From assembly GCA_964454335.1 (NCBI GenBank), contig CAYVVT010000002.1:211436-275435 (forward strand): DNA of 64,000 nucleotides, read 5' to 3'. The position numbers were made by a program, and so were the translations under genes. The stretch comes from an uncultured Lentisphaeria bacterium (lineage in GTDB: Bacteria > Fidelibacterota > UBA8477 > JABMPR01). Below the pieces are notes generated by a model. That model was given only the letters and a program-made list of their open reading frames with translations. It was not told the DNA's origin and made no database searches. The first letter of the stretch is position 1. Every line of letters starts with the position of its first letter. This document shows positions 16,263 to 28,519 of the stretch, one piece after another.

Positions 16263-16339
16263 ACTCTTTATCTCCTCAGCTTCGCATCATTAATCATTGC
16301 TGGAAATCTGAAATTTGGAATTTGAAACCCGATAAGCTA

Positions 16340-19812: not shown

Positions 19813-22239
19813 CTAATTCAGAATGACCGAAACCAGCGTGACAAGATCCTGAACATTGGTCTGTCCATCAAGATTATGATCCGCAGCCAGGGCTGCATCA
19901 CCTGTGAGAACGCTCTCTCCGAGAATATGTGCAACCAGCAGAATGATGTCCTGGATATTCAGAACGGCATCAAAATTCACATCACCCGGCATGATCCCGC
20001 TGCCGCCGGCGACAAAGATACGAACGTCGTCTACAGCAGCCTCCACCAAGGAGCCCAGGTCCTGGTCGTGAGCGATGAACCTCAGCTGGATCTGAGTGGG
20101 ATTCTCAAAATAGCGCTTCAGAACGAATTGTTTTTCCTGCCAGTAGTTTGCAGCCTCTATGGTGAATTCAAGATCCAGCCAATCGCTACTGCCATTTTTG
20201 ATCTGGACGCGCCAGGGATCGGATCCCGGATTGAATCCCAGGTCATTGGTGAACCAGCGCCAGTAGCTCAGCACCGGAAAGGTCCCACCCGGGATATTGA
20301 ACACCGGTGATTCCAGCGTGGTGGGACCATAATCCACATCGTTCTCCCCGGAATTATCGCCATCAAAGGGCGCGTTACCCGTCACAAAGCATAAGGTTCC
20401 CGGATCGCTGTGATCATCCTCCGGCTGCACCGGTACACCATCCTCGTAGGTCCCGATGGGATCCACACGTTCCCACACACCGGATTCGGCCGCATCCCCG
20501 GCGATTCCGAGGCTCCACCCCAGATCCTCTTCAGCATCATCGTAAGCAAGGGTAGTGAAATGTCCCATACCGCCTACGAGGAAGAAGAAGGGCAGATCCG
20601 GTGCGCTGACGGGATGATAGACCTCATTGCCCTCTGAGTCGTGGGCGTGGATATAGTACTCCACCACTGTGCCGCCCGGTTGTGCCGGGATGAAGCCCAG
20701 CCAGTCGTCTCCATCGGTATTCGTCATACCCACGTGCGTGTAGGCGCTGCCACTGAGGGCATAGTACAGATCAACGGTCAAACCGTCTGGTTCACCGCTG
20801 AAGATCGTAGCCTGTATCTCATAATCATTGGCCTGGTCGATGGTATTCTCCATGGGATCATGGCTGATCTGGAAGGCGGTGAGGGCTTTGAATGCGTTCA
20901 CCCGGTTTCCCATCTGCAGATTGCCTACATAATCACCATCCAGCAAACGCTCTTCCGTTGCAGCAGCATCGATACCGGGGAAGTGGGCCCTGATAAGTGC
21001 TCCGACACCTGCCGCCAGGGGAGTGGCCATGGATGTACCGTCCCAGGCCTGATAATTACTGTTATGGGCCGGATTATCAGGATCTGTACAACTCCAGATC
21101 CCGGTACCCGGTGCACACATGTCCACCCAGCTGCCGTAATTCGAGAAACTGGCGCGGCCATCACTGACGTTGGTGGCACCAACGCACACCGTACCTGAGT
21201 TCGCGCCGGGGTAGTGGGCAGTAGAGGAACCGTCATTCCCTGAGGCAAACAACACGACAGCATCCTGCACGTTGCGTGCGTATAGGATGGCATCCTGGAT
21301 GGTACTGGAATTGCCACCGCCGCCCCAGCTGTTGCTGAGGATCTGGGCACCATTATCAGCAGCGTAGATGATGGCATCAGCACAGACATCGTCCCAGGCG
21401 TTGGGGAAGATCTTGACACCCATGATCAGGGAGTGGTGCGACATACCCGCCACACCGGCACCATTGTCCGTCACAGCGGCAGCGATACCGGCACAATGTG
21501 TACCATGATCCTCGGCATTCCAGGGATGCCAGCCCCAGTCATGGTTGATATTCGGATCATCGTTGGTGTTGGATTCGGAACCGGAAAAATCATAACCATA
21601 GTAATCGTCCGCGACACCATTACCATCATCATCCAGACCATTGCCCTCGATCTCATTCGCGTTGATCCACAGGTTGTCCACCAGATCGGGATGGTCCGTG
21701 TCCACACCGGTATCGATGATGGCCACGATAATGCTGTCACTACCCGTCTCGATATCCCAGGCTGCCGCTGATTCGATGGTACTGTGGTGCCAGCTGGAAG
21801 AGTAGTAGGGATCATTCGGAATGAATTCAGTCTCATAGAGTTCCCGGAGATAGATCGGCTCTGCATATTCAATATCCCCGATATCGCTCAGGGCTCTCGA
21901 TAGTGTTGAAACGTTCTGATCCCTGTCGAATTCGACCACATACACACGATTGAGGCCATAAGGATCTTCCCCGGCACGCTTCAGATCAGGGAATGCCTTC
22001 ATTGCGCTACTGGCCGACTGGTTGAGCAGGATCGCATCCAGGTTGACCAATCCCAGCAGACCGGATGTCAGATCGCGATTCAATTCTGCGCTTTCGGTGA
22101 GCTTGACAAACATCTTGCGTGGATGTTCGGCGGCCTGTTCCTGGCCGAGAAGCATAGAATTCAGGAAGATGATCAGGAATAATATGTTCAAGAGAGATCG
22201 GTGCAACATGGTGATCCTCGTATGTACAGGTTGTTTCAT
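19813..22239 (-). CDS. secreted subtilisin-like serine peptidase (S8) with C-terminal dockerin-like module
   Basis: Catalytic triad motifs AIIDTGVDTDH (Asp), HGTHCAGIAA (His), GTSMATPLAAG (Ser). C-terminal ~60 aa carry two 12-residue calcium-loop-like repeats (DVNFDAVLNIQD, DHNLDGQTNVQD), each followed by a hydrophobic helix. Confidence 0.85.
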   Translation of the reverse strand: MKQPVHTRITMLHRSLLNILFLIIFLNSMLLGQEQAAEHPRKMFVKLTESAELNRDLTSGLLGLVNLDAILLNQSASSAMKAFPDLKRAGEDPYGLNRVYVVEFDRDQNVSTLSRALSDIGDIEYAEPIYLRELYETEFIPNDPYYSSSWHHSTIESAAAWDIETGSDSIIVAIIDTGVDTDHPDLVDNLWINANEIEGNGLDDDGNGVADDYYGYDFSGSESNTNDDPNINHDWGWHPWNAEDHGTHCAGIAAAVTDNGAGVAGMSHHSLIMGVKIFPNAWDDVCADAIIYAADNGAQILSNSWGGGGNSSTIQDAILYARNVQDAVVLFASGNDGSSTAHYPGANSGTVCVGATNVSDGRASFSNYGSWVDMCAPGTGIWSCTDPDNPAHNSNYQAWDGTSMATPLAAGVGALIRAHFPGIDAAATEERLLDGDYVGNLQMGNRVNAFKALTAFQISHDPMENTIDQANDYEIQATIFSGEPDGLTVDLYYALSGSAYTHVGMTNTDGDDWLGFIPAQPGGTVVEYYIHAHDSEGNEVYHPVSAPDLPFFFLVGGMGHFTTLAYDDAEEDLGWSLGIAGDAAESGVWERVDPIGTYEDGVPVQPEDDHSDPGTLCFVTGNAPFDGDNSGENDVDYGPTTLESPVFNIPGGTFPVLSYWRWFTNDLGFNPGSDPWRVQIKNGSSDWLDLEFTIEAANYWQEKQFVLKRYFENPTQIQLRFIAHDQDLGSLVEAAVDDVRIFVAGGSGIMPGDVNFDAVLNIQDIILLVAHILGESVLTGDAALAADHNLDGQTNVQDLVTLVSVILN

Positions 22240-22449
22240 GAACTTCAGACCTATACAATAAGCCTGAAGGACCCATTTTCAATTCGAAATCACGTCGTGA
22301 TATGAACGTTAAGCGTTTGGCCGCAACTCAATTCTGGGAAAAAAAGACCCTGCAACCATTGCTGGTGAGCAGGATCGAATGACTAATCCGATTTTTGGGA
22401 ATGATGCATAGGGCAGCTATCCAGAGCTTGATCGCCCCGATCGTTCAAA

Positions 22450-22498
22450 CACCCAACACCTAACGCCTAACACCTAACACCTAACACCTAACTCCTAA
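22450..22498. repeat. seven tandem copies of a heptamer (consensus CACCTAA on plus; TTAGGTG on the minus-strand transcript)
   Basis: Units CACCCAA, CACCTAA, CGCCTAA, CACCTAA x3, CTCCTAA are contiguous; the array overlaps the stop codon (22495-22497) of the rhodanese-like gene. Confidence 0.85.
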
Positions 22499-23118
22499 CA
22501 TCCCCCCGCAGGAGCCTTCTTCTTCGGTCTGCGCTTGATGGGTGGTTTCTTGGCAGTGGATTTCGTGTCAGCCTCTTTGGTAACGGCGTTGCCTCCGCCA
22601 AAAAAGCCGCTGGCACCCTTCTGGAATTCATAACGGGCCAGTTCTTCGTCAGGTGAGCTTGCGGCAGGTGCCTGGGGATTCATTATGGTGTCGAACCAGT
22701 AGTTCAGCCCGCCCTGAAGGACGTAGTTGTTCTCATATCCCAGTTGCCGCAGGATCATCCAGGTCTGATGGGCATAAAGGGAGCCGTTGGAATAGAGGAT
22801 GTTCATCTTGACGTCCTGATCGGTTATGTCAGCATACTCTTCGTTCAGGACCTCGGTAAACGGGATATTGATCGCACCGTCCAGATGGAACTTGTCATAC
22901 TCTTCAGGTGTGCGGACATCAATGAGCTGTATGGAAGGATCACGTGTGATGATCCAGTGCGCCAGATCCTCAGGTTGGATCATCTCTGCACCGTATTGGA
23001 CTTCGGTCAACATCTCTGCAGCACCCAGCCTGTAGGGCGTCGTCGTATTCTCGGGAACCATGGCGATGACCAGGCCCAGGGTCAGGATTGCCAGGAAGAT
23101 CAGATTACGCGGGTTCAT
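22495..23118 (-). CDS. rhodanese-like domain protein with basic C-terminal tail ending in Cys
   Basis: Start taken at ATG 23118 (signal/TM MNPRNLIFLAILTLGLVIAMV). Rhodanese fold motifs (IDVRTPEEY..., ...QGGLNYW); the expected active-site Cys position reads Ser (LYSNGS). Confidence 0.65.
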   Translation of the reverse strand: MNPRNLIFLAILTLGLVIAMVPENTTTPYRLGAAEMLTEVQYGAEMIQPEDLAHWIITRDPSIQLIDVRTPEEYDKFHLDGAINIPFTEVLNEEYADITDQDVKMNILYSNGSLYAHQTWMILRQLGYENNYVLQGGLNYWFDTIMNPQAPAASSPDEELARYEFQKGASGFFGGGNAVTKEADTKSTAKKPPIKRRPKKKAPAGGC

Positions 23119-23119
23119 A

Positions 23120-23740
23120 TCAGTACTCCTCTCTGGGGAATCTGCGTTCCGCCCATTCAGCCATGAAGAACATGGCGATAGCGACCAGAATGACCAGCAG
23201 GCTGAACACACCGCCGGAAATACCCAGAACCGCCGGGACTTTCAGCCCACCCAGTGCTTTGGCCATATGCAGGTCCTGCCACAGAGGGTATCCTTCAGCG
23301 AAAATAAAGATCCCGATGAAGAGCCCGGCAATGAATACCATGGCATCCAGCTTGCCGATGGCTGCGGCACAGAAGCTTGTTCCCGGACAGAAACCGCCGA
23401 TAATGAATCCGGCACCCATGATCACACCGCCGATGATGGTGGACCACAGATAGGTCGGGTTCACATAGACCAGGCTCAGGTCGATCCAGCCAAAGAGGCT
23501 GAAGTAGAGCAGACCCAGCATGGCCGTGATGGCGGCGGTGAAGAATACTTTCAATACGACAGTGTCATATCCATAGAAGATGCCTGCGAGTTTACGGCTG
23601 GAAGAGAAACCTGCCTGCTCCAGTACGAAACCAAATCCAATTCCAATAGCAAATGCGATGAACAGGTCCCAGTTCAATGCTATGATCTCTTGTGGTACGA
23701 GTGGTCCCATCCTAGACTCCGATCCAGTTACGACGAACAA
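23120..23740 (-). CDS. YeeE/YedE-family sulfur-compound transporter, second half-gene
   Basis: Sulfur-transport-domain motif IIGGFCPGTS; multi-TM. Confidence 0.7.
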   Translation of the reverse strand: MFVVTGSESRMGPLVPQEIIALNWDLFIAFAIGIGFGFVLEQAGFSSSRKLAGIFYGYDTVVLKVFFTAAITAMLGLLYFSLFGWIDLSLVYVNPTYLWSTIIGGVIMGAGFIIGGFCPGTSFCAAAIGKLDAMVFIAGLFIGIFIFAEGYPLWQDLHMAKALGGLKVPAVLGISGGVFSLLVILVAIAMFFMAEWAERRFPREEY

Positions 23741-24227
23741 AATAGGCCAGTGCGAAGGCGGTTCCGAAAATGGCCATCATCGAGATAAATCCTGCTACTG
23801 ACAGGACTGCCATGCCCGTGAGGGCCGAGCCACTGGTACAACCTCGACCCAACTGGGAGCCAAAGCCGAAAAGGATCCCCCCGGCTGCTGCAAATATGAG
23901 TCTGCGGTTTGCGCTGATACCGGGAAAATGTTCGATCTTCATCTTGAGGCGGCCAGAGAGAGCACCGGACAAGAATCCACCGATGAGCACTCCCAGCATC
24001 TCGAAAACCAGCCACGTTTTCAGCGGTGATTTACCCTCACCAACATATTTGCTGTAGTAGACGGAGTTCGAAGTGTGTTCCGGAGCAACAGTTTCCACCC
24101 CGGCCACGATGGCGCTCTTAACTGCACCGCTTGCGCCCAATCCTCTGCCAGAGAAGAAAAAGGCCAGCAGCAGGACCGTTCCCAGCAGCACACCTGCCAC
24201 ATAGGGATTCATATACTTGGTTTTCAA
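23712..24227 (-). CDS. YeeE/YedE-family sulfur-compound transporter, first half-gene
   Basis: Motif GSQLGRGCTSGSALTG; multi-TM; overlaps the downstream half-gene by 29 nt. Confidence 0.7.
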   Translation of the reverse strand: MKTKYMNPYVAGVLLGTVLLLAFFFSGRGLGASGAVKSAIVAGVETVAPEHTSNSVYYSKYVGEGKSPLKTWLVFEMLGVLIGGFLSGALSGRLKMKIEHFPGISANRRLIFAAAGGILFGFGSQLGRGCTSGSALTGMAVLSVAGFISMMAIFGTAFALAYFVRRNWIGV

Positions 24228-24328: not shown

Positions 24329-25270
24329 CTAATACAGCCATCTACTCGCCTGTCCGGCTTCCACAACGATGAACCTGAGGGCCAGGTTACCCATGATGAT
24401 GAGGAAGAAGGGCACGATGGCCGGAATGAATTTCTTGCGCAGTTCCAGGATCTCAAGCAAGGCCGGGAACAGCAGTCCCAGACCCACGACAAAGACCCAG
24501 AAGGATACGGTATATTCACCACCCAGGAACATCTCCGCAGCCTGGATATGGACCTCCGTACCGGAAAGAAATCCCATGAACATATGTACAATGAGGAAGA
24601 TCTCGATCCCGATGAGGATCACATCGATCCGTGCAAACCGCCGTTTCTCCTTATGGTCTTTGGAGAAGAATGCGTTGATGGCCGCTGCTGCGGACAGACC
24701 GCTGGTGAGAAACAACGGACCGAGTATGGCTGTATTCCAGAAGGGCCGGGCGTTAAATGCGGATAAAAGGATGCCAGTATACATACCCAGGATGACAGCG
24801 AGTAGGATAAGTGCATAGGCCAACAGGTCACGCTTCGATCTCGCCCAGTTCACGACTGCTTTGACTTCCTTGATCTTCCAATCCCATTTGGGGAAGAGCT
24901 CCTCGATCCAGATCGCGCACCACAGAATGGAGAGAGGTGTGATGAGCGTCAGAGTCCAGGCACCCCAAGACATGGGGCTTTCCCAGCGGATGTTGGTGAA
25001 CAGCTGCCAGAAATACCAGAAGTGGCTGAGGTCCAGCAACAGGGCCAGCAATCCTACTCCGATCAGTACCGGAACTGCCAGTGGTGTTATCTTCACAGCC
25101 GTTGGGTATCTGTCAGCCTTCCCCCGAACTGTGAACCACGCTGAAAAGATGAGTAATCCTGCTGAAATACCTCCCAGGAATAAATAGAAGGGGATCTCCC
25201 AGCCCCAGACGTGCAGGATGGGATCGATCTCGGGATTCATGCGGCCACTGGTGATGATTTCTTCGATCAT
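24329..25270 (-). CDS. NrfD/PsrC-type integral membrane subunit of the molybdopterin oxidoreductase
   Basis: About 8 TM helices; start taken at ATG 25270 (the track extension would overlap the ferredoxin subunit). Confidence 0.7.
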   Translation of the reverse strand: MIEEIITSGRMNPEIDPILHVWGWEIPFYLFLGGISAGLLIFSAWFTVRGKADRYPTAVKITPLAVPVLIGVGLLALLLDLSHFWYFWQLFTNIRWESPMSWGAWTLTLITPLSILWCAIWIEELFPKWDWKIKEVKAVVNWARSKRDLLAYALILLAVILGMYTGILLSAFNARPFWNTAILGPLFLTSGLSAAAAINAFFSKDHKEKRRFARIDVILIGIEIFLIVHMFMGFLSGTEVHIQAAEMFLGGEYTVSFWVFVVGLGLLFPALLEILELRKKFIPAIVPFFLIIMGNLALRFIVVEAGQASRWLY

Positions 25271-25281
25271 GTATTCGATCC

Positions 25282-25815
25282 TTACAGGAGATAATAGACT
25301 TTTGGTTTGGTGCCGGCTTCGGGTATCAGGGTCTTCCACTTCCGGGTAGCCAGCAGCTTGGAGATCGTACTGTTGGGATCGTCAATATCCCCGAAGGTCA
25401 TACATTTTGTCGGACACACTGCCACGCAGGCGGGATCCATCCCATCCTGCACCCGGTGGAGACAGAACGTGCACTTATCGATATAGCCTTCCGGATGTAC
25501 GAAGCGGGCGTCATATGGACAGCTGGCGATACAGGCTTTGCAGCCGATGCATTCATGGGGATCCACCATGACTGTCCCACCATCAGAATAGTGGCTGGCC
25601 TTCGTGGGGCAGGTGCGTACGCAGGGAGCGGACGCGCAGTGGTTACAGCGTTCGGACCGGATCTCCATGCTCAATTCAGGATAAGTGCCCACCGTTTTTT
25701 CGACGATCCAGTCCCGGCAATAGCCCAGGGGCACATCGTTCTCGGTCTGGCAGGCGACGACACAGTCACTGCAGCCGACGCATTTACGGGTGTCGATGGT
25801 CATTGCATACCTCAT
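25282..25815 (-). CDS. 4Fe-4S ferredoxin-type electron-transfer subunit (PsrB/PhsB-like)
   Basis: Four Cys clusters of the CxxCxxCxxxCP type. Confidence 0.8.
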   Translation of the reverse strand: MRYAMTIDTRKCVGCSDCVVACQTENDVPLGYCRDWIVEKTVGTYPELSMEIRSERCNHCASAPCVRTCPTKASHYSDGGTVMVDPHECIGCKACIASCPYDARFVHPEGYIDKCTFCLHRVQDGMDPACVAVCPTKCMTFGDIDDPNSTISKLLATRKWKTLIPEAGTKPKVYYLL

Positions 25816-28052
25816 GAGCCCACCTCCTCTCCGGCTTCGAAGCGGAAGGTGACGAAATTGGAACGCATACCTGTTCCGCCCATGATGGGATCGATCTTGA
25901 CCCTGGTGATCAGATCGGCATCGCTGGCACCACGGCCATAGGCCCGCGTCAGGCGTTTGTCCGTATGGCCGAAACCATGGACCATGTAAATACTATCCCA
26001 GCGAATACGCTCGGTGATACGCACCTTGATGGGCGTTTTACTTACAACGCCATCCTGATTCTCAAGCCAGACATACTCGCCCGTGCTCAAATCCCATTCC
26101 TTGGCCACCTTGGGATTCACCCAGACACTGTTCTCGTCCATGAGATCGGTAAGGTTCGGATTGTTGGCGGTACGGCTGAAGGTGTGCATGGGTGCCCGAC
26201 CGTAGTTCAGACGGTAGTAGCCTTCCGGCGGTTCCTCGTGAGCGGTGTACTTGGGCAGGGGATCGAAGCCTTCGTCCGCCATGGCCGTGGAATAGAGCTC
26301 GATCTTACCCGTGTTGGTATTGAATTCGAAATCTTCAAGCCTCTCCATGGGGTAGAGGTCCGGATATTCCCGGGGGAATTTCTTTACACCGATGCGCTGC
26401 ATCTCCTCCAGTGAACTGCCGACCTGTTTCAATTGCCAGTCCAGCATCTCCTCGACACTGTTCCAGGCGAAGTACTCCTCCAGCCCCAGTCGTTTGGAGA
26501 GTTCCCTGGCCATCCAGGCGGCAGGTTTGGTATTATATTTCGGTTCGACGGCAGGCATGCGCAGCGCGATAGTGGGCTCGCGATGGCCGCTTACCCGAAT
26601 ATTGTCATAGCGCTCTAGGTAGGTGCATTCCGGTAAGATGACATCAGCCCAGCCCGTGATCTCCATGGGCATGGTATCCACCACCACCAGCAGATCCAGG
26701 TTCTGCATCGCTTCAATGGTCTTCTTCTGGTCCGGTAGAGTGTGGATGAGATTGGTGCCATTAACGATCCAGCCCTTGAAGGAACAATCCCGTTCTGCCG
26801 ATGGGATGGTGGCATCGCAGATACCGGATGCCAGGGCAAGATCAGCGAGTCTGTACTGACCCGGAAAAGCATCCCGCCAGTTGCGTTTCGGTTTGGGGAA
26901 TGGTGGATGGGGATAAGCCGGTACGGATCGTTTCTCCGGATTGTAATAACCGCCGCGACGGCCCCAGGAACCCAAAAGGGCATTCAGCATGGCAACAGCA
27001 CGGAGTCGCTGAGTGTCATCTCCATACCAGGTCACATGACGTCCGGGATGAATGATCACCCGGGGACTGGCGTTGGCCATCTCCCGGGCTGTATCACGGA
27101 TCACGCGGGGTTTGATCGTGGTAATACCATAGGCCCATTCAGGTGTAAAAGGTGCTACATGGGCTTTGAGCTCTTCAAAACCGTAGGTGTATTTCTCGAC
27201 ATATTCCCGGTCAAAAAGCTGTTCTTCGACTATGACGTTCATCCAGGCCAGCAGTAATGCTAGATCGGTGGCCGGTTTGATGGGCAACCAGAATTTTGAT
27301 TTACCTGCTGCTATAGAAAAACGTGGATCCACAGTGATGACGGATGCTCCGTTGTCGATGGCATCGGCCATTTCCTGTACGGGTCCATTGTGCATGTTCT
27401 CGCCGAAATGGGAACCGATGAGCACCAGACAGCGCGTATCCCGGATATCAACGCGTTCCGGTGAGCCGACGCCTTCTCCAAAGGTGGAGATGAATCCCAC
27501 TTCCCGGGGACCCCGGCATTGTGCATAGGAAGGCGCTGCGATGTTGTTCGAGCCAAAGGCTTTCAACAGATGACCGAAGTATTTACCACCGGATCCATGA
27601 CTGAACAGAGCCACACATTCCGGACCATGCTCAGCTGCGATCTTCTGCATTCCTGCGGCGATGGTGTCGAAAGCCTCATCCCAGGTTGCTTCGCGGAAAA
27701 CCTGTTCTCCGCGCTCTTCAGTCCTGATCAGAGGTGTCTTCAATCTGTCAGAGTCATTGTACATGCCGACACCACCGGTACCCCTGGGACATAGACGTCC
27801 ATTGCAATGTGGATCATCTTCGTTACCGGTGATCTTCCAGACCTCACCATCCTCATTGGTGTGGACCCAGCCGGCACATTTCCAGAAACAGACCTCACAG
27901 TATGTGGGGGTGCGTTTCGAATACATGCCCGGCAGCACATCCGGGGAGAGGATATCACCCTTGATGCTGTCAAAGACCGGATTGGCGAAGGCCAGACCAC
28001 CGAGTCCCATACCGGCCAGCTTGATGAATTCTCTGCGGGAAACGGATCTCAT
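25812..28052 (-). CDS. molybdopterin (Mo-bisPGD) oxidoreductase catalytic subunit with Tat signal; polysulfide/thiosulfate/tetrathionate-reductase-like
   Basis: Twin-arginine signal MRSVSRREFIKLAGMGLGGLAFA; N-terminal FeS motif CEVCFWKCAG...CNGRLCPRG; 746 aa. Substrate inferred only from the sulfur-gene context. Confidence 0.75.
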   Translation of the reverse strand: MRSVSRREFIKLAGMGLGGLAFANPVFDSIKGDILSPDVLPGMYSKRTPTYCEVCFWKCAGWVHTNEDGEVWKITGNEDDPHCNGRLCPRGTGGVGMYNDSDRLKTPLIRTEERGEQVFREATWDEAFDTIAAGMQKIAAEHGPECVALFSHGSGGKYFGHLLKAFGSNNIAAPSYAQCRGPREVGFISTFGEGVGSPERVDIRDTRCLVLIGSHFGENMHNGPVQEMADAIDNGASVITVDPRFSIAAGKSKFWLPIKPATDLALLLAWMNVIVEEQLFDREYVEKYTYGFEELKAHVAPFTPEWAYGITTIKPRVIRDTAREMANASPRVIIHPGRHVTWYGDDTQRLRAVAMLNALLGSWGRRGGYYNPEKRSVPAYPHPPFPKPKRNWRDAFPGQYRLADLALASGICDATIPSAERDCSFKGWIVNGTNLIHTLPDQKKTIEAMQNLDLLVVVDTMPMEITGWADVILPECTYLERYDNIRVSGHREPTIALRMPAVEPKYNTKPAAWMARELSKRLGLEEYFAWNSVEEMLDWQLKQVGSSLEEMQRIGVKKFPREYPDLYPMERLEDFEFNTNTGKIELYSTAMADEGFDPLPKYTAHEEPPEGYYRLNYGRAPMHTFSRTANNPNLTDLMDENSVWVNPKVAKEWDLSTGEYVWLENQDGVVSKTPIKVRITERIRWDSIYMVHGFGHTDKRLTRAYGRGASDADLITRVKIDPIMGGTGMRSNFVTFRFEAGEEVGS

Positions 28053-28519
28053 GCGGTTGTCCAGTTCTCTTTAAGGAATTCTTTCATGTTATGACAGGTA
28101 CTGGCGCGCCGATAGACCTCGCAGTTGCGACAGTCCAGTTCACGACAGAACGGTCCCATGCGTTTCACCGCCCAGCAAGGTTCCTTGATCTCGGTGAATG
28201 CATCACAGGCTTGCTGGTCTTCAGGACTGCAGCCTTTCAGCTCCCAGCAGGGGATCATGGATAGAATAGCCTTGATACCCGCCAGATTGAGACCACGCTC
28301 TTCGATAGCCAGGCGGATGCAGCGCAGACGTTCGATATCCATCTGGGAATAAAGCCGCTGTTTTGAAGCTGTACGCTCGGGAAGCAGGAGACCCTCTGTC
28401 TCATACATGCGCAAGGTATGTACGGAAACACCCACCAGATCAGCAGCTACACTGATGGTGTAAACCGGTCTCTCCTGGTCAGCTAGTTTCGTGGGAATGT
28501 CTTGTGCTGTCATAATCAT
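28049..28519 (-). CDS. MerR-family transcriptional regulator with Cys-rich C-terminal domain
   Basis: N-terminal MerR HTH (YTISVAADLVGVSVHTLRMYETEGLL); C-terminal 60 aa contain 8 Cys (CWELKGC...C...C...CRELDCRNC...C); stop overlaps the oxidoreductase start. Confidence 0.7.
   Translation of the reverse strand: MIMTAQDIPTKLADQERPVYTISVAADLVGVSVHTLRMYETEGLLLPERTASKQRLYSQMDIERLRCIRLAIEERGLNLAGIKAILSMIPCWELKGCSPEDQQACDAFTEIKEPCWAVKRMGPFCRELDCRNCEVYRRASTCHNMKEFLKENWTTA

Follow-up and report, generated by a model that had tools for sequence, protein, structure and literature searches.

At the end of a sulfur operon in an uncultured marine bacterium of the Marinimicrobia, seven short repeat units stand directly on the stop codon of a rhodanese gene, and the question raised by this locus is whether such an array regulates the operon that it closes or is only a tolerated product of mutation. 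The window referred to below is the whole stretch of DNA analysed, 64,000 nucleotides (64 kb) in length. The array is, in our judgement, probably a lineage-specific heptanucleotide simple sequence repeat (SSR, microsatellite), seeded by slippage on the cysteine codon and stop codon of the gene, now decaying and tolerated where it stands. The two features on which the argument turns are the following.

22450 to 22498, minus strand: heptanucleotide tandem array of seven TTAGGTG units, four perfect and three with a single-base variant (sequence, TRF).
22495 to 22497, minus strand: TAG stop codon of the rhodanese gene, formed by bases 2 to 4 of the first repeat unit (sequence).

First of all, the anatomy of the array is simple. 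On the plus strand it reads CACCCAA, CACCTAA, CGCCTAA, three times CACCTAA and CTCCTAA; on the minus strand, which is that of the transcript, the order is TTAGGAG, three times TTAGGTG, TTAGGCG, TTAGGTG and TTGGGTG. The first unit contains the stop codon, and it is the coding strand that is G-rich. The description given by the first-pass annotation, namely seven head-to-tail heptamers, three of them with a single change, overlapping the rhodanese stop codon, is thus borne out by the sequence and by TRF, which reports a repeat at 22448-22500 with period 7, 7.6 copies, 89% matches and a score of 85, the top-scoring tandem repeat of the window. The perfect units are central, with a longest perfect run of three consecutive units, and the variant units lie toward the array edges.

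The cysteine codon TGT (22498-22500) just before the TAG keeps the phase of the repeat. With NGTTAGG taken as the unit, the locus becomes TGTTAGG, AGTTAGG, three times TGTTAGG, CGTTAGG, TGTTGGG and TGTTTGA, the last being a degenerate eighth unit that comes after the seventh unit of the array. Stop codons are present in all six frames, two per frame within the array. Readthrough of the TAG as a recoding signal was considered and rejected: it would add ELGVRC before the next stop and thereby repeat the Cys-stop motif, and since a double stop TAG TAG also ends hypF, we regard this product as a by-product of the origin of the unit. A second, weaker 7-nt repeat shortly past a stop codon was observed in the window at 16303-16327 (minus strand), where a short degenerate array of TTTCAAA, TTCCAAA, TTTCAGA and TTTCCAG stands 12 nt past the hypF double stop and ahead of the next hyp gene.

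When two units were used as a probe with up to two mismatches, six matches were obtained in the window, every one of them within the array, compared with a mean of 0.26 in shuffled sequence, where none of 100 shuffles reached six. With 7-nt copies arranged head to tail and a length beyond chance (TRF, shuffles), the array belongs to the heptanucleotide long SSRs, and it is also non-coding: it keeps clear of ORF bodies, in the interval that separates the rhodanese stop codon from the terminator. Outside the array, the rest of the 64-kb window shows no enrichment of the unit TTAGGTG (0-4 copies per strand, with about 3.9 expected). A genome search for further copies had been proposed by the first-pass annotation; within the 64-kb window it yielded neither a second TTAGGTG array nor an excess of single units, and with one clear array in 64 kb the genome is therefore not evidently SSR-rich.

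The array closes the operon and is followed by a spacer, a terminator and a peptidase gene, which are listed here from the head of the operon downwards.

28049 to 28519, minus strand: MerR-type regulator, head of the operon.
25812 to 28052, minus strand: PsrA-like molybdopterin oxidoreductase, operon member.
25282 to 25815, minus strand: 4Fe-4S subunit, operon member.
24329 to 25270, minus strand: NrfD-type membrane subunit, operon member.
23712 to 24212, minus strand: YeeE/Sulf_transp protein, operon member.
23120 to 23710, minus strand: YeeE/Sulf_transp protein, operon member.
22495 to 23118, minus strand: rhodanese-domain protein of 207 aa, last gene of the operon, with a membrane-anchored N-terminus and a Lys-rich tail ending in GGC (Pfam Rhodanese, E=1e-14).
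22377 to 22449, minus strand: non-repetitive 3'-UTR spacer from the array to the terminator (comparison with the window and related loci).
22339 to 22376, minus strand: intrinsic terminator, consisting of the hairpin GAUCCUGC..GCAGGGUC (22346-22376) and then U7 (22339-22345) (folding, dG -19 kcal/mol, z -2.9).
19813 to 22239, minus strand: S8 subtilase gene with a dockerin-like C-terminus, downstream of the array (gene annotation).

With the rhodanese stop codon at one end and the terminator beyond the other, the array makes up the opening segment of the operon 3' UTR, and the placement in the immediate 3' UTR of the sulfur operon made by the first-pass annotation is correct. The terminator, which follows about 70 nt downstream of the array, came from folding; none was detected by a consensus terminator scan, which presumably overlooked the hairpin and U7 owing to an internal loop and a bulge in the stem. 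The spacer at 22377-22449 is present only once in the window and is without counterpart among the related loci read, and its reading as a dispersed element was dismissed on account of this single copy. A weak sigma-70-like site at 22255-22282 suggests that the S8 subtilase gene has its own promoter. No tRNA or tmRNA genes were detected.

Two observations concern the proteins of the operon. The MerR-family regulator has a Cys-rich C-terminal half of the pattern CWELKGC...C...CW...C...C..C, which points to a domain sensing metals or redox state, through which the Psr-type operon could be controlled. The rhodanese protein, whose homologues carry the label Candidatus Marinimicrobia/Neomarinimicrobiota, has a Lys/Arg-rich tail (22495-22560, minus strand) followed by a C-terminal Gly-Gly-Cys, which is kept in all 34 orthologous loci read; the terminal cysteine is therefore suggested to be functionally important.

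As for the RNA itself, the array on the transcript strand has a minimum free energy of -4.7 kcal/mol (z +0.47) and its complement one of 0 kcal/mol, so that it is predicted to be unstructured on both strands. Together with its flanks it folds no better than shuffled sequences (z -0.88 and +0.29), and Rfam gave nothing relevant, either for the region with E up to 10 or for the whole window at the gathering threshold. The idea that the array substitutes for a terminator finds no footing here, with a predicted unstructured array that is followed by a canonical terminator. A G-quadruplex was also considered and dismissed. The array has no GGG runs, and the ViennaRNA G-quadruplex model gives none for it or for (UUAGGUG)7, compared with -13.2 kcal/mol for (UUAGGG)7 and -8.4 kcal/mol for (GGGAAUC)5; as modelled, the array would lie outside the G-quadruplex heptamer repeats, which have at least four G-tracts able to form such a structure. 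Its likeness to telomere-type TTAGGG repeats, which the first-pass annotation had pointed out, comes to little: telomere repeats stand at the end of a linear replicon and have G-tracts of three or more, but the array is flanked by genes within contigs of up to 322 kb and has neither GGG nor a predicted quadruplex. A HutP/TRAP-type antiterminator site, which would consist of spaced NAG triplets in a 5' leader overlapping a terminator and have a cognate protein, is not supported either: a UAG-N4 spacing is present, but the array is in the 3' UTR and about 70 nt off the hairpin.

The age and distribution of the array can be judged from other assemblies and from relatives. Six assemblies from different samples encode an identical rhodanese and have exactly the same array; over as much as 6.6 kb they show 0-2 differences from the window and are essentially one clone, so the invariance of the array is only weak evidence. 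An exact scan of JGI metagenomes with the 25-nt flank gave 0 matches, which means that no contig in that collection has the exact flank. Among other Marinimicrobia, the array is absent from all 34 of the orthologous loci fetched. The nearest relatives found have rhodaneses 78% and 72% identical and aligned flanks with about 73% and about 72% DNA identity, and in them the rhodanese spacer is about 120 nt long and without the array; thirty further orthologous loci, with proteins 47-68% identical, lack it too. The comparison of copy numbers suggested by the first-pass annotation has therefore been answered in part only, with no length variants in six assemblies that are essentially one clone and no array in other species. 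As far as public data allow, copy number is invariant and the array is absent from relatives. These are two of the three findings, the third concerning transcript ends, on which that annotation had proposed to give up its functional readings, and to that extent these readings fail.

Across the orthologues the GGC-stop end of the protein is conserved in position, and differences are found only in the stop codon and in what comes after it. In the locus L319 about 17 octamer units (about 140 nt; L319:1816-1965), of the TGAGTTAT type grading into TGGGTTGG, start in TGC|TGA|GTT, and the octamer resembles the stop codon and next bases of L318 (TGAGTTTA), a locus picked by eye as similar. In L322 an ATTCGTC heptamer array of about six copies (L322:1819-1880) begins at the TGT|TAA of the orthologous rhodanese gene. 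In these two lineages, arrays distinct from that of the window have arisen independently at the same stop codon. Moreover, about 400 nt past the rhodanese stop in L303-L306 there are decamer arrays, AATCTGTGAA and AATCCGTGTG, which differ by 40 nt (four units) between L303/L305 and L304/L306, although the same rhodanese protein is encoded; a (TTTAAGA)x4 follows the terminator there. The decamer difference is a real copy-number polymorphism in the spacer of a relative. In Marinimicrobia the spacer between rhodanese and peptidase genes ranges from about 120 to 600 nt with differing repeats. Judging by these loci, it is repeat-prone and hypervariable, and arrays seem to have been repeatedly seeded on the stop codon.

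A further observation from the same comparison concerns a strongly conserved element of about 45 nt, ACGGGGUGGUAAAC-loop-GUUUACCAAUUACGACC, which lies directly past the rhodanese stop in most other Marinimicrobia (L306-L312, L314-L316, L318-L321, L327, L329, L330 and L298-L305). It is located within the first ~140 nt past the stop, and about 240 nt downstream in L319, and a GC hairpin with a U-run comes after it; the length of its loop is variable, and the flanking single-stranded bases are nearly invariant. There was no Rfam match for three representative loci (L298, L300, L303). The element is absent from the window, where the repeat array and a different spacer are in its place. It is a candidate for an undescribed 3'-UTR or cis-regulatory RNA motif.

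On this basis, the following course may be proposed for the array. A slipped-strand event would have duplicated the proto-unit TGTTAGG, that is, TGT TAG G, the last codon and stop of the rhodanese gene; the proto-unit would then have been copied downstream to about seven units, and the array would since have begun to accumulate point changes. It could have persisted by sitting in one of the few harmless places, past the stop codon, where translation would be unaffected, and ahead of the intrinsic terminator; its mRNA strand, being G/U-rich and C-poor, should load Rho poorly. At present it would act as a passive 49-nt extension of the 3' UTR, predicted to be single-stranded and with stops in all six frames. 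A dedicated regulatory role need not, we infer, be assumed for it, and this neutral reading draws mainly on the absence of contrary evidence.

Whether the unit itself is special was judged from an exact scan for (TTAGGTG)3 with one genome per species, which gave at least 120 genome stretches as against about 0.3 expected by chance. By a tally of record titles, about 46 of the matches listed are cyanobacterial (Symploca, Caldora, Trichodesmium and others), about 37 are from Bacteroidota (including Maribacter, Croceitalea, Kordia and Hymenobacter) and about 37 from other genomes, these last covering at least a dozen further phyla. The 122 arrays among the matches listed have 3-58 units each, and none of the 122 is inside a long ORF. 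In viral contigs, TTAGGTGx3 has 18 matches, compared with 42 for the permuted control TTAGTGGx3 and 107 for TAACTGAx3. The notion of TTAGGTG as a uniquely favoured, horizontally spread unit was rejected, with the permuted TTAGTGG commoner in viral contigs; since this control is at least as common, the TTAGGTG unit is not special. That is to say, heptamer arrays are generally widespread, and TTAGGTG is one of many.

Several further features of these loci were recorded. Many (TTAGGTG)n arrays have, a short gap beyond them, degenerate CACCTAA-like copies in inverted orientation that would form long hairpins (for example L015, L018, L047, L068, L110, L118, L119 and L130). Some arrays fill the whole intergenic spacer (L016, L020, L051, L058, L123 and L126), and cyanobacterial paralogous copies with similar flanks have unequal numbers of units (L033/L069 and L054/L106). 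Other heptamer arrays often adjoin TTAGGTG arrays among the matches listed, as in the Symploca locus L036, where an STRR2-type array (TTGGTCA) stands beside the TTAGGTG array.

A protein or mobile element that generates the arrays was also sought and rejected: all-against-all BLAST of the ORFs from the 120 loci listed gave no family in more than six loci, and no protein family is consistently adjacent to TTAGGTG arrays among the matches listed. The largest ORF cluster by array loci (120 listed) is that of ABC ATPases, and a family in four array loci is taken by us to be Uma2-type endonucleases. A small protein with an NIAEG motif, which we take to be a four-helix bundle (23S rRNA-IVS / Avd-like), is found in five of the 120 loci listed (L031:3674-4057, L057:2494-2859, L111:4203-4595, L117:5957-6376 and L129:5107-5532) and directly abuts the array in two. 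Its nearness to arrays may be due to nothing more than the abundance of these genes in those phyla.

Among the 96 arrays listed that have two neighbours, divergent gene pairs are under-represented (12/96). In 31 of 96 arrays listed, the 5' edge on the G-rich strand coincides (-6 to +21 nt) with the end of a long ORF, compared with 2% for random positions; the equivalent on the other edge and strand, an ORF end, was seen in 8/96. Fourteen of the 31 use the first TAG as the stop codon, like the array in the window. The permuted TTAGTGG control arrays show a similar anchoring on stop codons (15/35). An orientation bias could arise without positive function: a C-rich, unstructured (CACCUAA)n right past a stop would be a good Rho-loading site and polar, and (UUAGGUG)n ahead of a start codon would offer SD-like AGG and GUG pseudo-starts. 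The strong polarity (31/96 as against 8/96 among those listed) is nevertheless not fully explained by pure neutrality, and function could contribute to it. Tandem arrays of 7-8 nt starting exactly at stop codons may also be considered as a selected 3'-end module shared across phyla, acting as an orientation-dependent, unstructured, G/U-rich and C-poor tract; we hold this to be improbable. If it were true, its possible roles would be the blocking of Rho loading, cold-shock/S1-type binding, or the capture of ribosomes after termination, and the Marinimicrobia rhodanese gene would have gained the module three separate times, in the window, in L319 and in L322.

Abundant families of short tandemly repeated repetitive (STRR) heptamers occur genome-wide in heterocystous cyanobacteria. 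The array in the window is, like them, a tandem heptamer in intergenic DNA, and STRR are defined by abundance throughout the genome. In most prokaryotic genomes, heptanucleotides are the unit met most often among long SSRs, for which an origin by polymerase slippage has been suggested (Mrazek, Guo & Shah 2007, as cited in PMC4679880 and PMC4692102). The array agrees with these prokaryotic long SSRs, which have units of 5-11 nt with heptamers predominant, in its tandem 7-nt units, its length beyond chance and its non-coding position. A whole-word literature search found no paper that treats TTAGGTG as a bacterial repeat.

It has been reported that the heptamer repeats GGGAATC and GGGGA(C/T)T of Xanthomonas and Nostoc are G-rich and intergenic, are under-represented between divergent genes, and are mostly transcribed, without an identified function (Rehm 2015, PMC4692102); they contain GGG runs, occur by preference as four units and fold into G-quadruplexes in vitro. 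The TTAGGTG arrays share the gene-end polarity of these repeats (PMC4692102) and, unlike them, have no GGG run and no predicted G-quadruplex.

The TAACTGA direct repeats of MacGregor 2015 (PMC4679880) are found patchily in marine Beggiatoaceae, Cyanobacteria and Bacteroidetes; they are intergenic and predicted to be unstructured as RNA, with stop codons that limit the overlap with ORFs, and close relatives often have no array and shorter spacers. The same paper names Csp, S1 or CsrA as speculative binders, and its section that names taxa outside Beggiatoaceae contains neither the TTAGGTG unit nor Marinimicrobia. The array in the window resembles these repeats in being intergenic, predicted unstructured, stop-bearing and missing in relatives with shorter spacers. 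In 'Maribeggiatoa', according to that paper, there are 169 TAACTGA sets, mostly of 2-4 copies, in the forward direction and just upstream of start codons, with a putative translational role; in contrast to this description, the array in the window is single, has seven units and lies just downstream of a stop codon.

The explanations that give the array itself a function may now be weighed against the tolerated microsatellite. All four are weakened by its absence from every relative fetched and by the non-specificity of the unit. The one that survives best, though we consider it improbable, is that the 3' UTR offers, in the array, a single-stranded landing site on which an RNA-binding protein would modulate mRNA stability or the efficiency of the terminator; candidates are a cold-shock-domain protein, ribosomal protein S1 and a HutP-like protein reading UAG triplets spaced 4 nt apart. 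HutP sites have the spacing UAG-N4-UAG, and that of the array is equal to it. The predicted lack of structure and the strand preference of TTAGGTG arrays relative to genes also fit such a platform, as does the 7-nt period, which matches the CspB footprint of about 7 nt per monomer discussed for TAACTGA repeats in PMC4679880. However, none of the 34 orthologous loci fetched has the array, and regulation of this kind would thus be confined to one species; this is the sole such array in 64 kb, a permuted heptamer is equally widespread, which argues against sequence-specific recognition, the binding protein is only putative, and the array does not overlap the terminator hairpin, being about 70 nt from it.

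A second explanation starts from the complementarity between AGGUG and the CACCU of the 16S rRNA 3' tail: the units would mimic a Shine-Dalgarno (SD) sequence, which seems very unlikely to us, and the extension of it, that seven copies past the stop hold terminating or free 30S subunits and affect ribosome recycling, mRNA protection or coupling, is just as doubtful. Genes of the operon do use SD sequences, including GGAGGUG, and for two units the pairing energy with the anti-SD tail is -7.0 kcal/mol, but this is weak compared with the -20.4 kcal/mol of a full SD. No ORF comes after the array, only stops in every frame and then the terminator, and relatives do without it. Elsewhere the array is also found reversed beside start codons, where it resembles the anti-SD tail instead of complementing it: in 13 of the arrays listed an opposite-strand gene has a putative start, mostly a visible ATG, at 0-5 nt from the G-rich 5' edge.

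Phase-variable contingency loci are known, for example, from Haemophilus and Neisseria, with tetranucleotide or heptanucleotide tracts; such tracts are long, perfect and polymorphic in length, and stand within an ORF or between the elements of a promoter. The array in the window is likewise a tandem SSR, a mutable kind of sequence that could in principle slip, and in a relative the corresponding spacer holds a decamer array that varies by four units between assemblies; a gain or loss of units would then switch the sulfur operon or the downstream peptidase. We give little credence to this proposal, which the first-pass annotation had put forward as a slippage-prone contingency tract. The array lies past the stop codon and before the terminator, and a change in length would therefore alter neither a reading frame nor the spacing of a promoter. 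Its units are imperfect, with three consecutive perfect ones at most, no length variation was observed in the six (clonal) assemblies, the organism is free-living and marine, and the flanking genes are metabolic and encode no surface antigens.

Finally, an element acting at the DNA level, whether as repeated protein-binding sites, as non-B DNA or a G-quadruplex, or as a recombination hotspot that remodels the spacer, could appeal to the hypervariable rhodanese-peptidase spacer of Marinimicrobia and to the quadruplexes formed in vitro by related G-rich heptamer repeats (PMC4692102), but is most improbable for an array without GGG runs or a predicted quadruplex, with no inverted partner copy in the 64-kb window, no recombinase or mobile-element gene near it among the window genes, and flanks that are unique within the window.

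For the window locus, the tolerated microsatellite means that the array is probably no regulator of the sulfur operon, and in annotation it can be handled as a 3'-UTR microsatellite specific to the species. Selection, for example against Rho loading or spurious initiation, may lie behind the anchoring at gene ends, or mutation alone may account for it. The wider pattern is the more interesting part: heptamer arrays with many different units are found again and again across phyla, close to gene ends and with a strand polarity. This gene-end polarity had already been noted for G-rich repeats in three genomes (Rehm 2015, PMC4692102), and the present analysis adds a further unit and many phyla.
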